A program made the translations under genes and the position numbers. Under the pieces are notes generated by a model. It worked only from the letters and a program-made list of their open reading frames with translations, was not told where the DNA came from and did no database searches. 64,000 bases of DNA from an uncultured virus (IMG/VR IMGVR_UViG_3300042894_007218) (lineage: Duplodnaviria; Heunggongvirae; Uroviricota; Caudoviricetes), in the IMG/VR virus record IMGVR_UViG_3300042894_007218; one strand, written 5' to 3'. Each line of letters opens with the position of its first letter. The stretch's first letter is position 1. This document shows positions 43,996 through 52,343 of the stretch, in pieces.

Positions 43996-44544
43996 ATGTC
44001 AATTTATATAAGTAGACAAGACTACCAAAGAGACTTATTACCAGAATTTAGAGATTTCAAATTGAAGTTAATTCAATCTGATGTGGATTTTTCAGTCAGT
44101 AAAGACCTCGTGAAAAAATATCATACAGACTTAACTTTTATTAGAAATAATTTTAAAAACGATATAATCTCTGGATCAATTGCTTTAGGTTTATTAGGTC
44201 TTATTAATAGAGTGGCTTCTGATATTGATATTCTTATTAAAGATAAGAACCGATATTCTGGATATATCAATAGCACATATTTTGCTTATGAATCCAGTAA
44301 TATGGATAATCGACTTGGTTATATCAATTTTGAATATAAAAAGAACTTCTTTTCAAAAACCAGATTTTATGAGGTTGATTTCTTTTTAAATTTGGATGCT
44401 AAATATATTGAATTTGATTTTGAAGGAACTACTCTTAAACTACAACATCCTTTAGAAATTATTTCAGCTAAAATGCGAATGACTCGTTCTCATAAACACT
44501 ATAGAGATTTGGAAATTATCTTTGCAAAATTTGCAGTTTTATAA
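43996..44544 (+). CDS. Pol-beta-superfamily nucleotidyltransferase-like protein
   Basis: ISGSIAL...SDIDIL, EVDFF, K...R.HKH.RD. Confidence 0.7.
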   Translation: MSIYISRQDYQRDLLPEFRDFKLKLIQSDVDFSVSKDLVKKYHTDLTFIRNNFKNDIISGSIALGLLGLINRVASDIDILIKDKNRYSGYINSTYFAYESSNMDNRLGYINFEYKKNFFSKTRFYEVDFFLNLDAKYIEFDFEGTTLKLQHPLEIISAKMRMTRSHKHYRDLEIIFAKFAVL

Positions 44545-45213
44545 CTTATTCTTTTTAATATCTCTATTTACTTTACTACATAAAGGTTGAAGATTTGTGA
44601 AGTGGTTTAATTTTATTACATCTTCTTCTGTCTGAGCTGATGATAAAGGTATAATGTGATCTATGTCCCATCCATAATTAAATTCGCCATCATATAAACC
44701 TTTATTTTCCCATGTCATCCAATCCTCAAACTTAGACTCCAAGTATATTTTAAGTTCATCAAAAGAACATCCTAATATTTCAATTGTTTTTAAGCTTTTC
44801 TTATAACCTTTACTTTTTAACACACTTGATATATAACTACGGATTAGACATTTAATATTGTATACTGGATCTTCTTGTTTTTTTCTTTTCAAATATTCGT
44901 TTCTATATTTTCTTTTCTCTTCAATGGGTCTGTTTTTATCCCATTCTCTCTTTTTTTCATTTAAAACATCTCTATTTTTCTCTCTATATTTTTTACTTTT
45001 TTCAGAATGTAATTCTTTATTATCATGGTAATTTTTAAGAGCATATTGATTTCTATATTCTCTATTTTCTTCATTCCATTTGTCTCTTTTTTCTTTAAAG
45101 TATTCATAGTTTTTTTTATAATATTCTTTATTATATTCTTTGATACAATCTTTACATGTTTTTGATTTCAATTTTTCTTTTGACTCTTTACCGCATTTTT
45201 TACAAACCTCCAT
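44539..45213 (-). CDS. HNH endonuclease with N-terminal Zn finger and charged repeats
   Basis: CKKC/CKDC, WDIDHIIPLS, NHFTNLQPLCSKVN; likely start MEVCKKC at 45213. Confidence 0.85.
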   Translation of the reverse strand: MEVCKKCGKESKEKLKSKTCKDCIKEYNKEYYKKNYEYFKEKRDKWNEENREYRNQYALKNYHDNKELHSEKSKKYREKNRDVLNEKKREWDKNRPIEEKRKYRNEYLKRKKQEDPVYNIKCLIRSYISSVLKSKGYKKSLKTIEILGCSFDELKIYLESKFEDWMTWENKGLYDGEFNYGWDIDHIIPLSSAQTEEDVIKLNHFTNLQPLCSKVNRDIKKNKL

Positions 45214-45277
45214 AACATTTTTAATTTTTTTTGTATAAATTATATATAAAAAAAGATAATTTCCCTCCACAGAAAAT

Positions 45278-45448
45278 ATGAAAAAAGTTTACGAGTCAAA
45301 AAAAATTTATAGTGATAAATATAATAAATCACATAAAAGTATTAGGATAACAAAAGAACTCTATGAAAGATTACAAAATCACATAGATGGTAAAAATATA
45401 ACCATTAAAGATTACATTGAATCTTTAATTGAAAAGTCTATTAAATAG
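45278..45448 (+). CDS. 56 aa ribbon-helix-helix-like protein (not in ORF track)
   Basis: ...KSIRITKELYERLQNHIDGKNITIKDYIESLIEKSIK; divergent from the HNH gene. Confidence 0.6.
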   Translation: MKKVYESKKIYSDKYNKSHKSIRITKELYERLQNHIDGKNITIKDYIESLIEKSIK

Positions 45449-45483
45449 TTCTTTTATTGAAATTAATTTCATATATTTGTCAT

Positions 45484-46119
45484 ATGAAATATTTGAACTA
45501 TAGGTATATTTTTCCACCCAGACCTAAGAATGCGGTCAGTCCAGAAGATTTAGACTTTTGGGACAATGGAAGTCTAATCTGCCAACCGAAGTTAAATGGT
45601 AGTAACGCAAGTATCTATACAAATGGTAAAAAAATCATTGTTATGAATAGACATGGTCAAAGACTCACAAATGTAAAAGTTTCTGATTCAGAGATTTTAT
45701 CTCTTTATAGAGGCAATGGTGGATGGATGATTTTAAATTGCGAATATCTTAACAAATCCAAATCTGACGAAACTGGACAACCTTTTAACCACAAGTTTGT
45801 TATTTTTGATATTCTTTGTATTGATGGTGATTATCTTGTTGGTAAAACATTTCAAGAAAGAGTTCAACTTTTAGATAATCTTTATGATCAAAAAGACTGC
45901 GAGAAAGAATATCTTTTTGGTATTTCAGAAAATGTATATCGTGTTAAATCTTATTTGACTGGATTTAATGAATTGTATAATAAATTAACACCAATTGATA
46001 TGATTGAAGGATTGGTTATGAAAAGAAGAAATGCTAGACTTGAAGTTGGAAGTTCTGAAATGAACAATGTTAAAAGTCAAATTAAATGCAGAAAAGCAAC
46101 TAAGAACTACAAGTATTAA
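45484..46119 (+). CDS. ATP-dependent ligase-like adenylation domain protein
   Basis: QPKLNG, LNCEY, FVIFDIL, EGLVMK; no OB-fold; TATATTTG promoter at 45472. Confidence 0.75.
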   Translation: MKYLNYRYIFPPRPKNAVSPEDLDFWDNGSLICQPKLNGSNASIYTNGKKIIVMNRHGQRLTNVKVSDSEILSLYRGNGGWMILNCEYLNKSKSDETGQPFNHKFVIFDILCIDGDYLVGKTFQERVQLLDNLYDQKDCEKEYLFGISENVYRVKSYLTGFNELYNKLTPIDMIEGLVMKRRNARLEVGSSEMNNVKSQIKCRKATKNYKY

Positions 46120-46344
46120 TTACATTCCTAAATCTGGCAAAGTCACATCAAATTCTTCTGGTTGACCTAAAACCACTTCAATTGATTGGTCATAGACAAT
46201 ATAGTAGAAATTATCTAATTCAGAGAATTGATATCCGCACCAATGTTCTGTTACGCAATCTGGTTTTGGATAACCATAATAAGTGTCACATTGTGATATT
46301 GCTGCTTGTGCTTCTTGTTCTGTTGTAAATTTGTAACCTGTCAT
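46120..46344 (-). CDS. Small fibre-associated protein; duplicate of 40942..41151
   Basis: About 120 nt identical to 41045-41167. Confidence 0.7.
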   Translation of the reverse strand: MTGYKFTTEQEAQAAISQCDTYYGYPKPDCVTEHWCGYQFSELDNFYYIVYDQSIEVVLGQPEEFDVTLPDLGM

Positions 46345-46360
46345 AATTTATTTTATTTTT

Positions 46361-46462
46361 ATCCTCAGTGTATTGCTGACCTACCAATTCGTCTTTTTGT
46401 ACTTCTGTTAATAGTCCAACATATGTGGACCATTGTGCTTGTTTTATGTCTGTTAGTTTCAT
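46361..46462 (-). pseudogene. Truncated paralog of the 42361..42579 chaperone-like gene
   Basis: MKLTDIKQAQWSTYVGLLTEVQKDELVGQQYTED, then an abrupt switch to the duplicated sequence. Confidence 0.65.
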
Positions 46463-46465
46463 AGT

Positions 46466-48334
46466 TTATACGTTTCTGCTTAATGCAGTTTGATATGTTT
46501 GTACTCGTGTGTATAAGTTAGCTGCATCTGTATCTGTTAGTCCATCCCCAATAGAAGCAAATGCTGTCTCTTTAGTTGAATATAAATTAGCACCCGTTCC
46601 AACTAAATTCCTTGCGCCAAAATAAACATTGCCATTTATTGCAGTTGTTCCAGATGATGTGTTTGAACCTTGAGATGTTCCGTTCTTATATACCTTTTGA
46701 AGTGTAGATGTTGTCCTTGTATTTAACCATAGACCTCTTGAATCTGTTACTGCAAAATTGACATTAGTTGCTGCTATATGATTTCCAAAATATCCAACAT
46801 TACTTATTCTACTTTCAACATCAAAATATTGACCAATACTTCCAATTAAACCAGCATCCACTCTAACCTCATCTAAATTTGTTCTAATATAATAAGATAA
46901 GTGATTATTGTCTTTATAGGTATTCACATTGAAATTTGAATCTCCAAATCCATTTGTTCCGTTAAATAAAACTCCTGTACTGCTGTGTGTAATTCCACCC
47001 GCCCAAGTGATTTGATAAGCAGCAGTATTCTTTAAATTATAAGAATGTGCCGTTGCATTACCTCCTACCATTGGATAGATTGCAGCCATCTTAGTCCATA
47101 AACTATCTGCTTTCAATCCTATTACAAGATTGTTGACCGCAGTTGCTTGTGTAGTATCTGTAATTACCGCAGCATTTAAGAATGCTTGTGCATCTGAATC
47201 TGATACGATAGGCACACCCACTTGCCTTCCTAAAGTTGTTTGAAACCTCTGTACCGCAGTGTATAAGTTAGCTGCTTCGGTGTCTGTAAGTCCCTCTCCT
47301 ATTGTACTCAATGCTAACTGTCTATTTGAATAATAACCACTAGAGCCATTATTATTGAATGCACCTAAGTATATTGAGTTAGAATTTAAGCCTGTACTAT
47401 TACTTACTCCTGTAACTAATTTTGTATTTTTTTGGAAAACACTATACTGATTTGAAGCTATTCTTGAAATTAAAAACAAACCTAATGAGTCTACAATTCC
47501 TGTATAATTTACTTGATCACTTGAATTTAATCTTGAATAAAAATATACACTACTAAATCTAGGTAATATATAAAGCTGATTAGTATCACCTGCATTACCC
47601 GAGCCTATATCTACACTTGTTCCAGGGGTATCTGTTCTACTATAAAAAGAAACGTGTGTGTTATTTAAAGATAGTGCAGAAGATGGTACTAATCCCGTAT
47701 CGGCAAAAGCATTTGTTCCATTCGGTGTAGCTCCTGTGCTGCTATGTATCCACCCACCATTAAATGTAAGTTGATACTGAGCAGTATTCATAAAGTTATA
47801 TGAATGCTTACCCGCAGTACCACCAACAAATGGATATAAAGCCTTCATCTTAGCAGTCAATCCATAGGTAGTTAAGTCACTTTCAAGAGTATTTAATGCT
47901 CCTAAAATAGTAACATCTGTCTCTCCAGTGGCAGCTATCCACGCAGTAGTTAGTGTGCCGTATCCGCCACCACTTGATACCCAAGAAGTCCAATAACCAT
48001 TCGTGTTTAACCAAGTCTTTGCTGTTGATGGATTGGTAAAGTTTTGAGGAGTTGAATATCTACTTGAAATATAATTTGATATTGATAAAAAAGAAGCCTC
48101 ACTTTGAGTGGCGGATCTCCAAAATTGAACATTAGCTGTACCACCACCTGGTTTTGATTGACCTGGTGATTCATAAGCAATAACATAACCAAGTGTTTCA
48201 TCTGGTCCATTGTACCAAGTCAATGAAGAAGTAAGCCCAGAAAAACTTGTACCAGAAATCGCCAGATTTCCAGTCTGAGTTAATCCAGATATCAAACCAC
48301 CTGTATTGTAAGCAAACGCTCTTGAAACTGCCAT
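46466..48334 (-). CDS. Modular fibre/adhesin-like virion protein C with tandem C-domains
   Basis: Same N-domain as A/B; two copies of the B-type C-domain (ending LGRQV and LSRNV). Confidence 0.72.
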   Translation of the reverse strand: MAVSRAFAYNTGGLISGLTQTGNLAISGTSFSGLTSSLTWYNGPDETLGYVIAYESPGQSKPGGGTANVQFWRSATQSEASFLSISNYISSRYSTPQNFTNPSTAKTWLNTNGYWTSWVSSGGGYGTLTTAWIAATGETDVTILGALNTLESDLTTYGLTAKMKALYPFVGGTAGKHSYNFMNTAQYQLTFNGGWIHSSTGATPNGTNAFADTGLVPSSALSLNNTHVSFYSRTDTPGTSVDIGSGNAGDTNQLYILPRFSSVYFYSRLNSSDQVNYTGIVDSLGLFLISRIASNQYSVFQKNTKLVTGVSNSTGLNSNSIYLGAFNNNGSSGYYSNRQLALSTIGEGLTDTEAANLYTAVQRFQTTLGRQVGVPIVSDSDAQAFLNAAVITDTTQATAVNNLVIGLKADSLWTKMAAIYPMVGGNATAHSYNLKNTAAYQITWAGGITHSSTGVLFNGTNGFGDSNFNVNTYKDNNHLSYYIRTNLDEVRVDAGLIGSIGQYFDVESRISNVGYFGNHIAATNVNFAVTDSRGLWLNTRTTSTLQKVYKNGTSQGSNTSSGTTAINGNVYFGARNLVGTGANLYSTKETAFASIGDGLTDTDAANLYTRVQTYQTALSRNV

Positions 48335-48423
48335 AATATAGTAATATATATTAAACTCTTAAACTCAAATTAAAAAATATTAAATACAATCTATAATTTA
48401 ATATATAAGAAAATTATATATTT

Positions 48424-48522
48424 TTGAGGTGTAATGCTAAACTTGAGGTTGGTTCGTCGGAGCTAAACAACTCTAAAAGCCAAATAAAATGCAGGAAGAG
48501 CACCAAAAATTACAAATATTAA
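48424..48522 (+). pseudogene. Orphan diverged 3' end of the ligase-like gene
   Basis: Translates LRCNAKLEVGSSELNNSKSQIKCRKSTKNYKY* versus KRRNARLEVGSSEMNNVKSQIKCRKATKNYKY* at 46021-46119. Confidence 0.8.
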
Positions 48523-48523
48523 A

Positions 48524-48613
48524 TATAACGGTTGGGTATATACGAAGTACCCGATGCAGAAACTTTAAATTTAATACAAACCTTATAGGGTATTTCGTAT
48601 ATACCTTGTTATA
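48524..48613. repeat. attC-like imperfect inverted repeat
   Basis: TATAAC...GTTATA outer boxes; 18-nt arms 48535-48552 / 48588-48605 with one mismatch. Confidence 0.7.
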
Positions 48614-48626
48614 AAACGTTTATTTT

Positions 48627-48842
48627 ATGGAAAATAGTATTGAAAAATGGATGAAAGAGTGGGTTGATAGAACATCACAAGTTAAATATGAAAACTCATT
48701 CAATGAGAAGAGTGATGAGTGGATTGAGATTGAAGGTGTTGGTAGATTTAAAGGACTTGAGATTGTCTCAGAAGAACATCAAGATATAAATGAGATAACA
48801 ATCAATCTCAAATATGATGTGTGGGATAAAAATGTTTTATAA
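48627..48842 (+). CDS. Cassette-borne hypothetical protein
   Basis: 71 aa ORF bracketed by GTTATAAAACGTTT and AAATGTTTTATAAC. Confidence 0.65.
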   Translation: MENSIEKWMKEWVDRTSQVKYENSFNEKSDEWIEIEGVGRFKGLEIVSEEHQDINEITINLKYDVWDKNVL

Positions 48843-48894
48843 CTATTATATATCTATAATTAAACTAAATCACTTATTTTATATATGATTTTAT

Positions 48895-49692
48895 ATGAAA
48901 ATTCTTAAAATATTTGAAGAAAAGTTAAGATATAAAAATTACTCTGAAAGAAGTATAACTTTATATGTTTCTTATTTATCTTTCTTTCTAAAAGAAGAAG
49001 GAATAAAAGACCCTTATCAAATTACTACAAATAGAATAGTAAGTTTTTTGGAAAATAAATCTTATACTTCTATAAGTCAGCAAAATCAATACATAGGTTG
49101 TTTAAAATTATTTGCTAAGTATATACTTAATAAAAAAGATATACACCTATCTAAAATTGAAAGACCTAAATCGGAAAAAAAACTTCCACAAGTTATAGAT
49201 GGAGACCACATAAAAGAACAACTATCTAAAATAACTAACTTAAAACACAAAACTATACTCACACTAACCTATTCAGTTGGTTTAAGAGTGTCTGAGGTAG
49301 TTAATCTTAGAATCGAAGATATTGATTCCAAAAGAATGATTATCTACATTAAAAATGCTAAAGGTAAAAAGGATAGAATAGTTCCTCTTTCTCAAACTGT
49401 TTTGGATTTAATGAGACAATATTGGAAAGAATACAAACCAAAAGAATATTTATTTAATGGTCAATCTGGTGGGAAATATTCCATTCAATCCTGTCAAAAA
49501 ATCTATAAAAAGTATATTGATGAAAGTTCTTCTATACATACATTAAGACATTCCAGCTTCACTAACCTTTTAGAGTCTGGAACAGATCTAAGGATAATAC
49601 AAAAGTTAGCAGGTCACTCCAGTTCTAAAACCACCGAGATTTACACTCATGTTTCAAATCAATTACTAAGTAAAGTAAATTTACCAATTTAA
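48895..49692 (+). CDS. Tyrosine recombinase with SAM-like N-domain
   Basis: GLRVSE, KGKKDR, HTLRH, AGH, IYTHV catalytic residues. Confidence 0.92.
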   Translation: MKILKIFEEKLRYKNYSERSITLYVSYLSFFLKEEGIKDPYQITTNRIVSFLENKSYTSISQQNQYIGCLKLFAKYILNKKDIHLSKIERPKSEKKLPQVIDGDHIKEQLSKITNLKHKTILTLTYSVGLRVSEVVNLRIEDIDSKRMIIYIKNAKGKKDRIVPLSQTVLDLMRQYWKEYKPKEYLFNGQSGGKYSIQSCQKIYKKYIDESSSIHTLRHSSFTNLLESGTDLRIIQKLAGHSSSKTTEIYTHVSNQLLSKVNLPI

Positions 49693-49718
49693 TATATAAA
49701 GAAAATTAATTTTTTCTT

Positions 49719-49797
49719 ATGAATTTACAACCATTGTGTAGTAAAGTAAATAGGTATATAAAAAAAGATAAAATTGAATATGATGCCGAAATTTAGT
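49719..49797 (+). pseudogene. Orphan 3' end of an HNH endonuclease
   Basis: Translates MNLQPLCSKVNRYIKKDKIEYDAEI*, matching the C-terminus of the 44539 HNH (NLQPLCSKVNRDIKKNKL). Confidence 0.7.
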
Positions 49798-50352
49798 AAT
49801 TTAAAGCCAAAAACCGACTTCAATGGACCAGATGAAGATATTGTTTATCAAGATGATAAATTAAAAATCATAAATTACGAAGACTGGTCTTTAATTAAAG
49901 AAAAAGATTGTATTGTTTGTATTCCTTATTTAATTGAATCAAATCAAATGGTTTTAAGATATGAATATATTTCAACATTTAAGTATGTTTCTGGTCAAGA
50001 ATTTCACTTAACTGTTGTAAGTGGTGGGATTGAAACTGGTGAAACTCCTGAGCAAGCTCTTTTAAGAGAATTAGAAGAAGAAGCCGGTATTGTATTAAGA
50101 GAAGATTTTCAAATTGAAGAAGAATTAAAACCTCTTTTTATTAGTAAAGGACACACTAATAAATATTATCCTTATATTTTACCACTTAATGAAAGAGATT
50201 ATCACGAGGTAATCGCTCGTGGAGACGGATCTGAAGAAGAAGCTAAAAGTAAATCTGTAAAGGTTGATGTTAAGTATATAAATTCTTTAAATACTTCTGA
50301 TTTAATCACTGATTATATGTTGGCCAAATTGAAAGAATACTTAAATATGTAA
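49780..50352 (+). CDS. Nudix hydrolase
   Basis: GGIETGETPEQALLRELEEEAG Nudix box. Confidence 0.9.
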   Translation: MMPKFSNLKPKTDFNGPDEDIVYQDDKLKIINYEDWSLIKEKDCIVCIPYLIESNQMVLRYEYISTFKYVSGQEFHLTVVSGGIETGETPEQALLRELEEEAGIVLREDFQIEEELKPLFISKGHTNKYYPYILPLNERDYHEVIARGDGSEEEAKSKSVKVDVKYINSLNTSDLITDYMLAKLKEYLNM

Positions 50353-51147
50353 TTAGTATATAGGATCTCCTATAAAGTATTTTTTTCCTGAGTTAATTTT
50401 TATACTATCAAATTTTTTATTATCGTATAGTAATATGACTTGTGACGCCCAGTTGAAATTTCCAACTTCTTGGAACATGTCAATATTATCACCTTTCTTA
50501 ACAGCAAAATTAAAATCTTGTATAGAAAGTTCACCAACAAGTATCATATATACACTTCCAGATTCTTTTGTTGAAATTTCAACAATCCATAAATTGTTTT
50601 CTCCGAAGAAATTATCATCAGGTGATACTTCTATTATATCCTTAATTTTTCCGGATATTGGTGAATGAACTCTATGATAATATACTTTTAAAAGTTTCAT
50701 GTTGATAAAAGATAAATTATCAACATTTTTGACACCAATATTTTTTAAATCTTCTATAACATTCTCAGCAGATTTTTTAAGTCTTATTATTGATGATGTG
50801 TCGGATATTTTACCTATAGATTCTATATTGCATTCTGATGGTAAAGACATTTTATTTTTTTGAGATTTAATTTCTTCAAATTTTTCTTTTGATATTTTTC
50901 TTTTGAAGTATTGCATAAATGTTTTATACTCTTTATCTTCAAACCAATCATCTGGTGTAGAATACTTACCCCAGTCTTTGTTTATTTTAAATTTGTTGAT
51001 GATTTTCCACAGTTTATTACCTATCTCTTTATTTCTATGTTTGTAAAGAATTGACATAATTACCTCATTATCTAATGAATCAATTGCTTTGTCAGATAGT
51101 AAATCTAACTCATCAAATTTTTTGTATTCTTTGATAAACCTCATCAA
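50353..51147 (-). CDS. Phosphatidylserine decarboxylase-like protein
   Basis: F..YFKRK, YYHRVHSPISG, KGD..EVGNFNWAS. Confidence 0.7.
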   Translation of the reverse strand: MMRFIKEYKKFDELDLLSDKAIDSLDNEVIMSILYKHRNKEIGNKLWKIINKFKINKDWGKYSTPDDWFEDKEYKTFMQYFKRKISKEKFEEIKSQKNKMSLPSECNIESIGKISDTSSIIRLKKSAENVIEDLKNIGVKNVDNLSFINMKLLKVYYHRVHSPISGKIKDIIEVSPDDNFFGENNLWIVEISTKESGSVYMILVGELSIQDFNFAVKKGDNIDMFQEVGNFNWASQVILLYDNKKFDSIKINSGKKYFIGDPIY

Positions 51148-51176
51148 AGTTATATATAAAATTTAATATATAGATT

Positions 51177-52343
51177 ATGTCAATTAAGATTAAAAGACTT
51201 AGTGAGTCTGTATTTCCAGAAGTTTCTGTAAAATTTCCAGAAACCATTTCTTTATATACATCAAATGGTAATTTTACTTACCAATTAAGAAATGTTTATA
51301 ATGATGGATCGTCTATAAAATCAACTTACTTTAGTAAAGGTGATGAATTGAAATCTAAATTTTTACCAATAGATGAACCAAATAATTTTTATATAGAACT
51401 ACATACACATACAGATGATGAAGACAATCAAAAGATTACGGTTGATATTATTTATGGTAGGTCACCAAAGTTTCAATTTACAATAGAAAGACCGAATATT
51501 TTACAAGTCACTAATTATAATGGTTTTGGTTCTAAGTTTGATGCGGAGTCTAAATTTGCTTTAAGTGATGAAAGTGTTAAAGATTTTGTTAATTGTCTAA
51601 ATGAAATAGGCTTTGATTTCACAGAGAAACATTTTCAGTTTATGGATAAATATCCTTATTCTTATCAATATTATGAGAACTTAAGTATGAAGCCACTTTT
51701 TGATGGTATAATTTTAGTATTAAATAATGGTGAGCCAAACAGACGAAGCTACTTACCAAATGTTTTGACTTATTTGACTACTCGTGGTTTAAATCATGTT
51801 GTAACATCATCTGTTACTGAAATTGATAGCATATTAAATAACCATAATGTGTTTGGTGTTATTTCTACTGGCTCTGATTATAGAATTTCATCTCCAAGAA
51901 GTGAAAGTGAGCAAGAACTTAGCCATAAGGCACTTGGTGGTATTACTAAACCACTTATTGGCATGTGTTATGGGTTTCAATCTATGGCTGACTTTTATGG
52001 TGTCAAAGTAAAAGATAGTGGTAAGTTTTTTAATGATAATATAAAACTTTCCAATTGGTGTAAAGATAGTAAAATATTTAAAGATATGAATTTAGATGAC
52101 TATCAATTTAGTGTTTCTTTTCATGATATGGTTCCTGAGTGCCCAAATGGATTTAGAGTTATCGCTGAACATGATGGAAATATTTTAGGTATAGATAATG
52201 AAGAATTAATGAGATGGGGTTTAGCTTTTCATCCCGAGGATATAGAAAGAACTTATCCTATTTTAGATAATTTTATCGATATTTGCTCAGAGATTAAAAA
52301 TATTGAAGAGTCTAAAGTTGTCAAATTTAAAGACTTTATTTAG
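51177..52343 (+). CDS. Protein with C-terminal class I glutamine amidotransferase domain
   Basis: GMCYGFQ, FHD, FHPE triad motifs. Confidence 0.8.
   Translation: MSIKIKRLSESVFPEVSVKFPETISLYTSNGNFTYQLRNVYNDGSSIKSTYFSKGDELKSKFLPIDEPNNFYIELHTHTDDEDNQKITVDIIYGRSPKFQFTIERPNILQVTNYNGFGSKFDAESKFALSDESVKDFVNCLNEIGFDFTEKHFQFMDKYPYSYQYYENLSMKPLFDGIILVLNNGEPNRRSYLPNVLTYLTTRGLNHVVTSSVTEIDSILNNHNVFGVISTGSDYRISSPRSESEQELSHKALGGITKPLIGMCYGFQSMADFYGVKVKDSGKFFNDNIKLSNWCKDSKIFKDMNLDDYQFSVSFHDMVPECPNGFRVIAEHDGNILGIDNEELMRWGLAFHPEDIERTYPILDNFIDICSEIKNIEESKVVKFKDFI

Follow-up and report, generated by a model that had tools for sequence, protein, structure and literature searches.

The window analysed here is a stretch of 64,000 nucleotides from the uncultured virus record IMGVR_UViG_3300042894_007218, and it is part of a very large lake-water phage. 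Between its ATP-dependent ligase gene and a NUDIX hydrolase gene lies what we read, with a probability of about 0.85, as a minimal phage-borne integron-like gene-capture system holding one cassette. The locus comprises a gene for a Xer-like tyrosine recombinase, an attI-like docking site in front of its start codon, a single cassette, and an attC-like hairpin at the far end of that cassette. An earlier note made from the letters of the window had proposed this attI-cassette-attC arrangement, and the relatives of the locus bear it out, with one-sided arrays, covarying hairpins, a lone docking TAAC, pairing of ends across each cassette and homology that breaks at TAAC. Sequence comparison can be said to establish the layout, the conservation of site structure, where exchange takes place and that whole cassettes move from one array to another. 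By analogy with integrons, the recombinase would catalyze the exchange on a single-stranded substrate, with resolution via replication; the exact bond cleaved within TAAC and the role of a conserved loop are matters that we infer.

Structured sites and cassette ends

The two arms of the window's hairpin (48535-48552 and 48588-48605) form 18 paired positions, 17 of them Watson-Crick and one G.T. Five nucleotides are unpaired after the left TAAC (48526-48529) and two before GTTA (48608-48611), so the 18-bp stem with asymmetric 2/5-nt spacers is present as the earlier note had described it. Arm matches of this kind number two in the window versus none in any of 100 shuffles, and the arms are unique in the window. 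As single-stranded DNA the plus strand, which is also the strand of the recombinase gene, folds at -16.8 kcal/mol (z -3.47, 0 of 200 shuffles as good) and the minus strand at -13.5 kcal/mol (z -2.51, 3 of 200 shuffles as good). The covariance model of the site family recognizes one site in the 64 kb, at 48523-48617, scoring 94.2 bits on the plus strand with an echo of 33.5 bits on the minus strand.

Sites of the same design accompany the recombinase in its viral relatives. A scan of viral contigs gave 204 stretches encoding a relative of the enzyme, the best 80 of which (56-97% identity) were used; removal of seven duplicates left 73 non-duplicate viral loci for structural counts. By blastn the hairpin region of the window matches about a dozen relative loci, 0.3-4.9 kb upstream of the recombinase gene, and an iterated nhmmer profile gave 207 hairpin matches, all upstream on the recombinase strand and none downstream. 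The earlier note had proposed looking for similar AAC-stem-GTT hairpins and arrays beside recombinase homologs, and they are there: a detector using TAAC, GTTA and the stem alone (threshold 12), made to avoid profile drift, found 270 sites upstream on the plus strand (242 kb) versus 4 downstream on the plus strand (335 kb). The other placements were 3 upstream and 1 downstream on the minus strand, and 4 inside the recombinase gene. The covariance model, built from 39 sites, gave 230 matches at E <= 0.01, spread over 75 sources. Apart from nine weak minus-strand matches, which echo stronger ones on the plus strand, all are upstream as we read the table of matches. It finds no site in L001 or L002, two relatives that lack the recombinase. 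At least one site is present in 56 of the 58 non-duplicate loci having at least 1 kb of upstream sequence, with up to 11 sites within 5 kb, and many contigs end inside or beside an array, as is expected of repeats, which break assemblies. Site length from TAAC to GTTA in the arrays of L003-L082 falls into classes of 45-49 nt (57 sites), 80-99 nt (68) and 110-139 nt (118), with a few sites of 150-219 nt; the window's site, at 86 nt, belongs to the middle class.

What is conserved in sequence is TAACG on the left, TGTTA on the right, a few stem positions and part of the loop, while the stems diverge widely yet stay complementary. Compensatory changes occur in 17 of 24 pairs of a MAFFT alignment of 39 sites. 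In a model-fitted alignment of 148 distinct sites, 97.5% of cells are paired, versus 66.7% after shuffling and 35-56% with the partners slid, and the covariation score of 0.743 (versus 0.159) is reached by none of 500 shuffles. The five pairs of the outer TAACG/TGTTA helix are formed in 99.2% of cells of these 148 sites, three of them invariant and two varying in 1 and 8 sites, and two G.T pairs are near-invariant (148 of 148 and 147 of 148 sites). The family stem is a continuous run of 19 pairs whose only irregularities are the 5 and 2 unpaired nucleotides beside the cores and the fixed G.T wobbles. The plus strand gives the better fold in 215 of 236 sites (mean -13.3 versus -11.3 kcal/mol). 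Like attC, these sites are imperfect palindromes with conserved structure, variable sequence and terminal AAC and GTT cores. Canonical attC sites have R and L boxes, an unpaired central spacer and extrahelical bases; that geometry is not found in the phage family, where the stem is continuous. Arms that vary freely under a pairing constraint favor recognition of a folded strand or a cruciform over recognition of two double-stranded binding arms.

The partner of the hairpin is a lone TAAC followed by TATTATATAT. Among 61 distinct sequences, the distance from it to the recombinase start codon is 40-70 nt; the docking box was detected in 68 of 74 loci, and the sequence to the left of its TAAC is unrelated between loci. 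In the window the docking site is 55 nt upstream of the start codon, its TAA doubles as the stop codon of the cassette open reading frame (ORF), and the homology of the window to its close relatives begins at 48829-48840. The docking site is found, as attI is, at the 5' end of the recombinase gene, and one cassette that is attI-proximal in one array is internal in another.

The ends of the cassettes obey a simple rule. The 8 nt after GTTA and the 8 nt before the next TAAC are complementary at a mean of 5.41 positions (mode 7, n = 266), whereas the two flanks of one hairpin are complementary at 2.88 of 8 (n = 269), against 2.89 for random flanks. Both halves of the outer stem belong to one cassette: the ends pair across the cassette, not across the hairpin, so each unit brings both halves with it and the junctions within an array are hybrid, which is the signature of integron arrays. 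The window conforms. The boxes at 48843-48830 and 48621-48608, which the earlier note had taken to be complementary, match as reverse complements at 13 of 14 positions, and the cassette between the two TAA/C cuts (the slash marks the cut) has the length of 314 bp that it had given. The pattern of end complementarity excludes a self-moving hairpin and homologous exchange within repeats.

Homologous exchange is part of an alternative in which the hairpins serve regulation or act at the RNA level (for instance in processing, in termination or as carriers of promoters), homologous recombination shuffles the units and the recombinase is a bystander. The hairpins do lie on the sense strand immediately upstream of the cassette ORFs, their conserved wobbles would be G.U in RNA, and the loop is partly conserved in sequence. 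Nevertheless, we hold this explanation to be very unlikely, since such sites would not be confined to one side and one strand of a recombinase family, since exchange by homology would keep the flanks of one hairpin matched rather than at the random level, and since homology breaks at TAAC. Nor was a terminator-like site found in a scan that gave 9 sigma-70 promoter sites versus 11.3 expected, with a tool that does not cover Bacteroidota-type promoters, and no Rfam match was obtained in 46000-50000 at E <= 1. With promoters not enriched, a cassette promoter borne by the loop remains a guess.

Movement of whole cassettes is seen among 56 high-scoring segment pairs (HSPs) between loci, of at least 150 bp and at least 80% identity. 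Seven of them run from the TAAC of a hairpin to the next TAAC, and in all seven the rank of the cassette counted from attI differs between the two loci. A two-cassette block of 960 bp, 100% identical, lies beside attI in L038 and internally in L042; single cassettes of 277-372 bp are common to L038/L039/L042 and L048, and to L019 and L035. The cassette of the window, hairpin and ORF together, recurs in the phage contig L083 (2880-3229) with 91% identity over 355 nt. In L083 it occupies the attI-proximal place in a multi-site array that belongs to a divergent enzyme, the start of the L083 recombinase being 42% identical to that of the window over residues 4-70. Judged from these alignments, what moves is the hairpin together with the plus-strand gene on its right, because shared units end TAAC to TAAC and because a lone TAAC is found at the recombinase end and a hairpin at the far end. 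The mirror-image cassette, in which the hairpin would be owned by the gene to its left, was considered and rejected: the docking TAAC is stemless, a hairpin opens the array at its far end, and shared units run from TAAC to TAAC.

A further alternative makes the hairpin alone the mobile element, akin to a miniature inverted-repeat transposable element inserting at TAAC, with the gene cassette not the unit of movement. A palindrome with TAAC/GTTA ends does resemble terminal inverted repeats, and contigs from lake water pile up on it. These data are the assembled contigs of four lake-water runs (no RNA run is listed among the public runs that carry the window), and in two of them the summed contig depth over the bin containing the hairpin (48417-48617) is about 64-68 versus about 11-14 in neighboring bins; many lake contigs match the hairpin and then diverge into unrelated sequence at 48516/48521 and 48615/48645. 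The pile-up indicates that the site family is abundant in those lake communities. The outside flanks of one hairpin are no more complementary than random ones, whereas the ends of hairpin plus body are, and the shared units span the TAAC of the hairpin, the body and the next TAAC, so a self-inserting hairpin can be given almost no weight.

In 161 of 269 cassette bodies the ORF is on the recombinase strand and points towards the recombinase; in 21 it is on the other strand, and 87 have an ORF on neither. The antisense orientation relative to classical integrons, reported earlier for the cassette ORF of the window (48627-48842, plus strand, co-directional with the recombinase), is therefore that of the family, and the integron habit of cassette genes pointing away from the integrase is not followed (161 versus 21). 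Read away from the recombinase gene, the order of docking site, body and hairpin is that of an integron. Since the box that crosses is AAC on the plus strand, and the plus strand is also the better-folding one, this strand corresponds to the bottom strand of integrons. The median cassette ORF is 74 aa and the median body 270 bp. A Pfam scan of 150 of the 156 predicted cassette ORFs brought seven to the cut-off, namely two N6/N4 DNA methylases, a D12 DNA methylase, an Rv2179c-like exoribonuclease, a metallophosphoesterase, a GNAT acetyltransferase and DUF7446; the others gave a few matches below cut-off and the remainder no family. The 71-aa cassette protein of the window has no family in Pfam, PHROG or NCBIfam and no lead in the Atlas, and none of its 55 homologous clusters bears a functional name. 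It is plausible that the cassettes are a store of accessory or counter-defence genes, as the cargo is mostly tiny uncharacterized proteins with a few DNA methylases.

The Xer-like recombinase and a model of exchange

The recombinase matches the Pfam families Phage_integrase (3.8e-35) and Phage_int_SAM_4 (2.1e-08), and the expected R, H-x-x-R, H and Y positions are occupied by the candidate catalytic residues R131, H215, R218, H241 and Y250. With the closest recombinase, that of L003, identity is 97% at the protein level and 90.8% at the DNA level, consistent with purifying selection on the enzyme. Among solved structures the best relative is Pyrococcus XerA (4a8e), colinear at 128 bits. Vibrio IntI4 (2a3v) aligns in two blocks, query 8-173 with chain 10-177 and query 207-261 with chain 259-313. 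Between them, just before HTLRH, the phage enzyme has 34 residues (query 173-207) where IntI4 has 82 (chain 177-259), and the IntI-specific segment, the I2 helix, is not found. The 265-aa recombinase was thus correctly described as lacking the IntI insertion, and the integron-integrase models TIGR02249 (156.2 bits, cut-off 265) and NF011946 (113.8 bits, cut-off 435) remain below their cut-offs, the TIGR02249 match falling into two stretches of which the best spans query 3-207. The Xer equivalog models fall short as well (XerA 183.2 bits, cut-off 220; XerC 153.9, cut-off 335.15; XerD 153.3, cut-off 329.6), and no NCBIfam hit of the enzyme reaches its cut-off.

These figures bear on two conventional explanations. 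The first is a canonical integron of the IntI family that has merely diverged, for which one could cite the AAC/GTT cores, the palindromic sites, the docking site at the recombinase 5' end and the 156.2-bit match to an integron integrase. It is extremely unlikely with the IntI insertion missing, the integron-integrase models far below cut-off, a continuous stem with asymmetric 5/2 spacers, and inverted genes. The second is an ordinary integrase for lysogeny or for resolving genome dimers, the hairpin being its attP or dif-like site and the cassette look coincidental. The best matches of the enzyme are indeed Xer-type (XerA at 183 bits, 4a8e at 128 bits), but all Xer models are below cut-off, a single attP or dif site explains neither up to 11 sites with different stems nor shared cassettes, and freely varying inner arms are a poor fit to double-strand binding arms. 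No tRNA gene was found within 8 kb (44000-52000); integrated phage copies were not searched for. This explanation, too, is exceedingly improbable.

Relatives of the system also occur in bacterial chromosomes. A search of one-per-species genomes (loci L085-L164) found the best recombinase homologs to be 40-52% identical (65% for one partial match on a 2-kb contig) and mostly from Bacteroidota. There the like hairpins lie downstream of the recombinase gene on the opposite strand, so that the 3' end of the gene faces the array. The structural detector placed 26 sites in the bacterial loci downstream on the opposite strand, versus one upstream on the plus strand, one upstream on the minus strand and one in the gene. 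Of 48 covariance-model matches, 11 are in the viral L083 (10 plus, 1 minus-strand echo), one is upstream on the plus strand in L085, and the remaining 36, all from bacterial loci, lie downstream of the gene on the minus strand. A docking-like motif, ATATATAC[AT]A/GTTAG, is found about 120 nt past the recombinase stop codon in several Flavobacterium strains, and from its sequence this is the docking core as in phages, with the recombinase gene inverted. Carriers include cultured Flavobacterium, Pseudopedobacter and Arundinibacter strains and metagenome-assembled genomes (MAGs) of Bacteroidota (e.g. L129 5798-8735, L122, L163, L136, L137). Sites were also seen on some Nitrospirae and Deltaproteobacteria MAG contigs.

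We give a little better than an even chance to a wider proposal: that a short Xer-like clade, which never had the I2 segment of IntI or has lost it, runs true integron chemistry, a folded single-stranded cassette site against a double-stranded docking site. It would do so in the large phages of Bacteroidota and also, from an inverted recombinase gene, in the chromosomes of Bacteroidota.

In our model of the phage system the platform would be the Xer-like recombinase together with its docking site, TAAC followed directly by TATTATATAT. Each cassette would consist of the structured site (TAAC, a spacer of 4-5 nt, a variable stem of about 18-20 bp, the loop, a spacer of 1-2 nt and GTTA) and then a short gene. 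In the free circular cassette the two ends would pair, GTTA and the 8 nt or so behind it binding the roughly 12 nt that finish in TAAC, to give a long imperfect hairpin. The recombinase would exchange strands within or at the edge of TAAC, between the folded site and the docking site, and new cassettes would enter beside the recombinase gene. The folded substrate would likely be the plus strand, the counterpart of the integron bottom strand.

Several points weigh against the integron-like interpretation. No recombination product was observed, assembled contigs being blind to rare excision, and a window with one cassette does not demonstrate activity in this phage. The recombinase is without the segment that, in the abstract of PMC7790495, is credited with the shift of integron integrases to single-stranded substrates. 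An RNA hairpin in cassette transcripts would account just as well for the G.T pairs and for the sense orientation. Among the 56 HSPs, 17 start at a core and fade in the body, 3 only end at a core and 29 touch neither, and the seven that run core to core amount to about three independent cases, plus the case of the window and L083. Two of the 58 loci with ample upstream sequence (L053 and L080) have no site by the structural detector. Finally, the 148-site alignment, being model-fitted, is biased towards structure.

The locus within the phage genome

The features of the locus are collected in Table 1. Among 50,697 phage records the relatives of the window at the DNA level are three uncultured phages of 634-642 kb; otherwise there are only short matches, between the window and an endonuclease gene of Flavobacterium phages. 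The ATP-dependent ligase and NUDIX genes are 39 bp apart in LR745206 and are separated by a single 82-aa ORF in LR756502, whereas the gap in the window is 3.65 kb (46120-49773). It contains, in order, minus-strand ORFs of 74, 58 and 622 aa, a copy of the ligase end, the hairpin, the 71-aa ORF and the 265-aa tyrosine recombinase. The platform is absent from LR745206 and LR756502 (complete, 634 and 642 kb), in which no recombinase homolog was found at E <= 1e-5. By this comparison of genomes the platform locus is an insertion inside a huge-phage genome.

Table 1. Coordinates of the array, its sites and the recombinase gene in the window.
Feature	Coordinates	Strand	Basis
Distal array flank, the final 32 ligase codons in a degenerate copy	48424..48522	+	pairwise alignment with the true ligase 3' end, ORF translations
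attC-like site: 18-bp stem with 35-nt loop, flanked by TAAC and 5 unpaired nt on the left and by 2 unpaired nt and GTTA on the right	48526..48611	+	pairing, folding, covariance model
Single 314-bp cassette, hairpin site plus ORF, between two TAA/C positions	48529..48842	+	shared cassettes, copy in L083
GTTA and the following 10 nt, inner end of the body	48608..48621	+	inverted repeat of 48830-48843, 13/14
Cassette ORF, 71 aa, no functional assignment	48627..48842	+ (recombinase strand)	ORF list
attI-proximal cassette end, partner of 48608-48621	48830..48843	+	reverse complement, 13/14
attI-like docking site: TAAC core (48840-48843), then TATTATATAT	48840..48853	+	start of homology, by-eye upstream alignment, consensus
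265-aa tyrosine recombinase, Xer-like, without the IntI insertion	48895..49692	+	Pfam, NCBIfam, PDB alignments, motif positions

The degenerate ligase copy resembles the true ligase 3' end with 76% mean column identity over the whole 240-column alignment. It stops 3 nt short of the hairpin's TAAC, a core that lies beside a DNA-ligase stop codon. The last 32 codons of the ligase occur twice with similar translations, at about 46025-46119 and, truncated, at 48424-48522. The three minus-strand ORFs (74, 58 and 622 aa) between the copies are not at this position in LR745206 or LR756502. The 2.3-kb segment 46120-48423 was considered as a giant cassette and dropped, its left end having no bounding TAAC/GTTA site. 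A possible contig joint from the ligase to its second copy (45954 to 48426) appears in two lake runs, in a single contig per run with a 25-nt side, and another (48388 to 48852) in one run, at depth 2 and within a 10-nt repeat; both are weak and were not used as evidence.

The 622-aa protein (46466-48334, minus strand) is without a Pfam family and matches PHROGs of unknown function in two stretches. Its gene has an internal direct repeat with a 750-nt period (46476-46582 and 47226-47332, 72%), and contig joints from four runs skip about 510-800 nt inside it, which suggests that the repeat number varies between populations. The protein may be fiber- or receptor-binding-like. An AT-rich motif around TTTAATATATAAGAAAA occurs in intergenic DNA at 45242-45262, 48395-48424, 49686-49715 and 49754-49774. 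Outside the window it is seen at about 3502-3540 of L001 and between the ligase and NUDIX genes of LR745206, and it may serve the phage as a promoter. Adjoining the platform, 49774-52343 encodes a NUDIX hydrolase, a phosphatidylserine decarboxylase homolog (minus strand) and a protein with a class-I glutamine amidotransferase domain, which look auxiliary. About 0.8 kb upstream of the ligase gene, a short stretch at about 44580-44672 matches the HNH / endonuclease VII gene of Flavobacterium phages at 75% identity and is possibly a remnant of a homing endonuclease.

Comparison with known systems

A full-text literature search found no description of phage integron-like arrays. In passages of PMC9024848, only one complete integron is reported in Bacteroidetes, that of Salinibacter ruber M1, and integrase-based detection finds almost nothing in this group. 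The abstract of PMC7790495 attributes the single-strand chemistry of integrons to one helix acquired by IntI. In the locus described here the architecture of integrons and their AAC/GTT logic would be run, in virus genomes, by an enzyme without that helix. If so, there is a second natural solution for recognizing a folded strand, the exchange of tiny accessory genes one at a time among huge phages is explained, and a class of arrays has been missed by integrase-based detection, with which the Bacteroidetes result of PMC9024848 is in line. If the wider proposal of a short Xer-like clade also holds, the capture of genes in cassettes either has more than one origin or is older than IntI, and phages own a stock of accessory and counter-defence genes for exchange, invisible to present integron-detection tools. 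With the related arrays of cultured Flavobacterium, Pseudopedobacter and Arundinibacter strains, the question could be taken to the bench.

With classical integrons, including sedentary chromosomal ones such as the Vibrio cholerae array with its homogeneous repeats, the phage system shares a docking site bordering the recombinase gene on its 5' side, arrays of small one-gene cassettes extending away from it, a distal imperfect palindrome in each cassette, AAC...GTT cores, hybrid junctions, and an exchange point at the AAC of the better-folding strand. It differs in its Xer-like enzyme of 265 aa without the IntI insertion, in being carried by a phage, in a site with a long uninterrupted stem, fixed G.T wobbles and 5/2-nt spacers, and in cassette genes that point towards the recombinase gene. 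Integrons with an inverted integrase gene are known from Treponema and related groups. They share a non-classical orientation with the Bacteroidota relatives described here, in which the recombinase 3' end faces the array; their IntI proteins have the insertion, and the phage version inverts the cassette genes instead of the recombinase gene.

The Xer recombinases (XerA and XerC/D) are the closest matches to the phage enzyme in sequence and structure. CTX phage exploits Xer through a folded single-stranded site, and pdif modules likewise exploit Xer. CTX phage thus provides an earlier example of a Xer-type enzyme that works on a folded single strand. In contrast to the Xer, pdif and CTX systems, the phage enzyme is encoded by the element itself, is tied to cassette arrays and scores below the cut-offs of the Xer models, and no 28-bp dif-type site was seen at the phage locus. 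The promoter-stem-loop cassettes of T4-type phages are probably shuffled by homologous recombination and are not known to have a dedicated recombinase. They have in common with the system described here the small accessory genes of large phages, repeated stem-loops between them and a highly variable content; unlike in the T4-type cassettes, the breaks here fall at a 4-nt core and the flanks obey the cassette rule.

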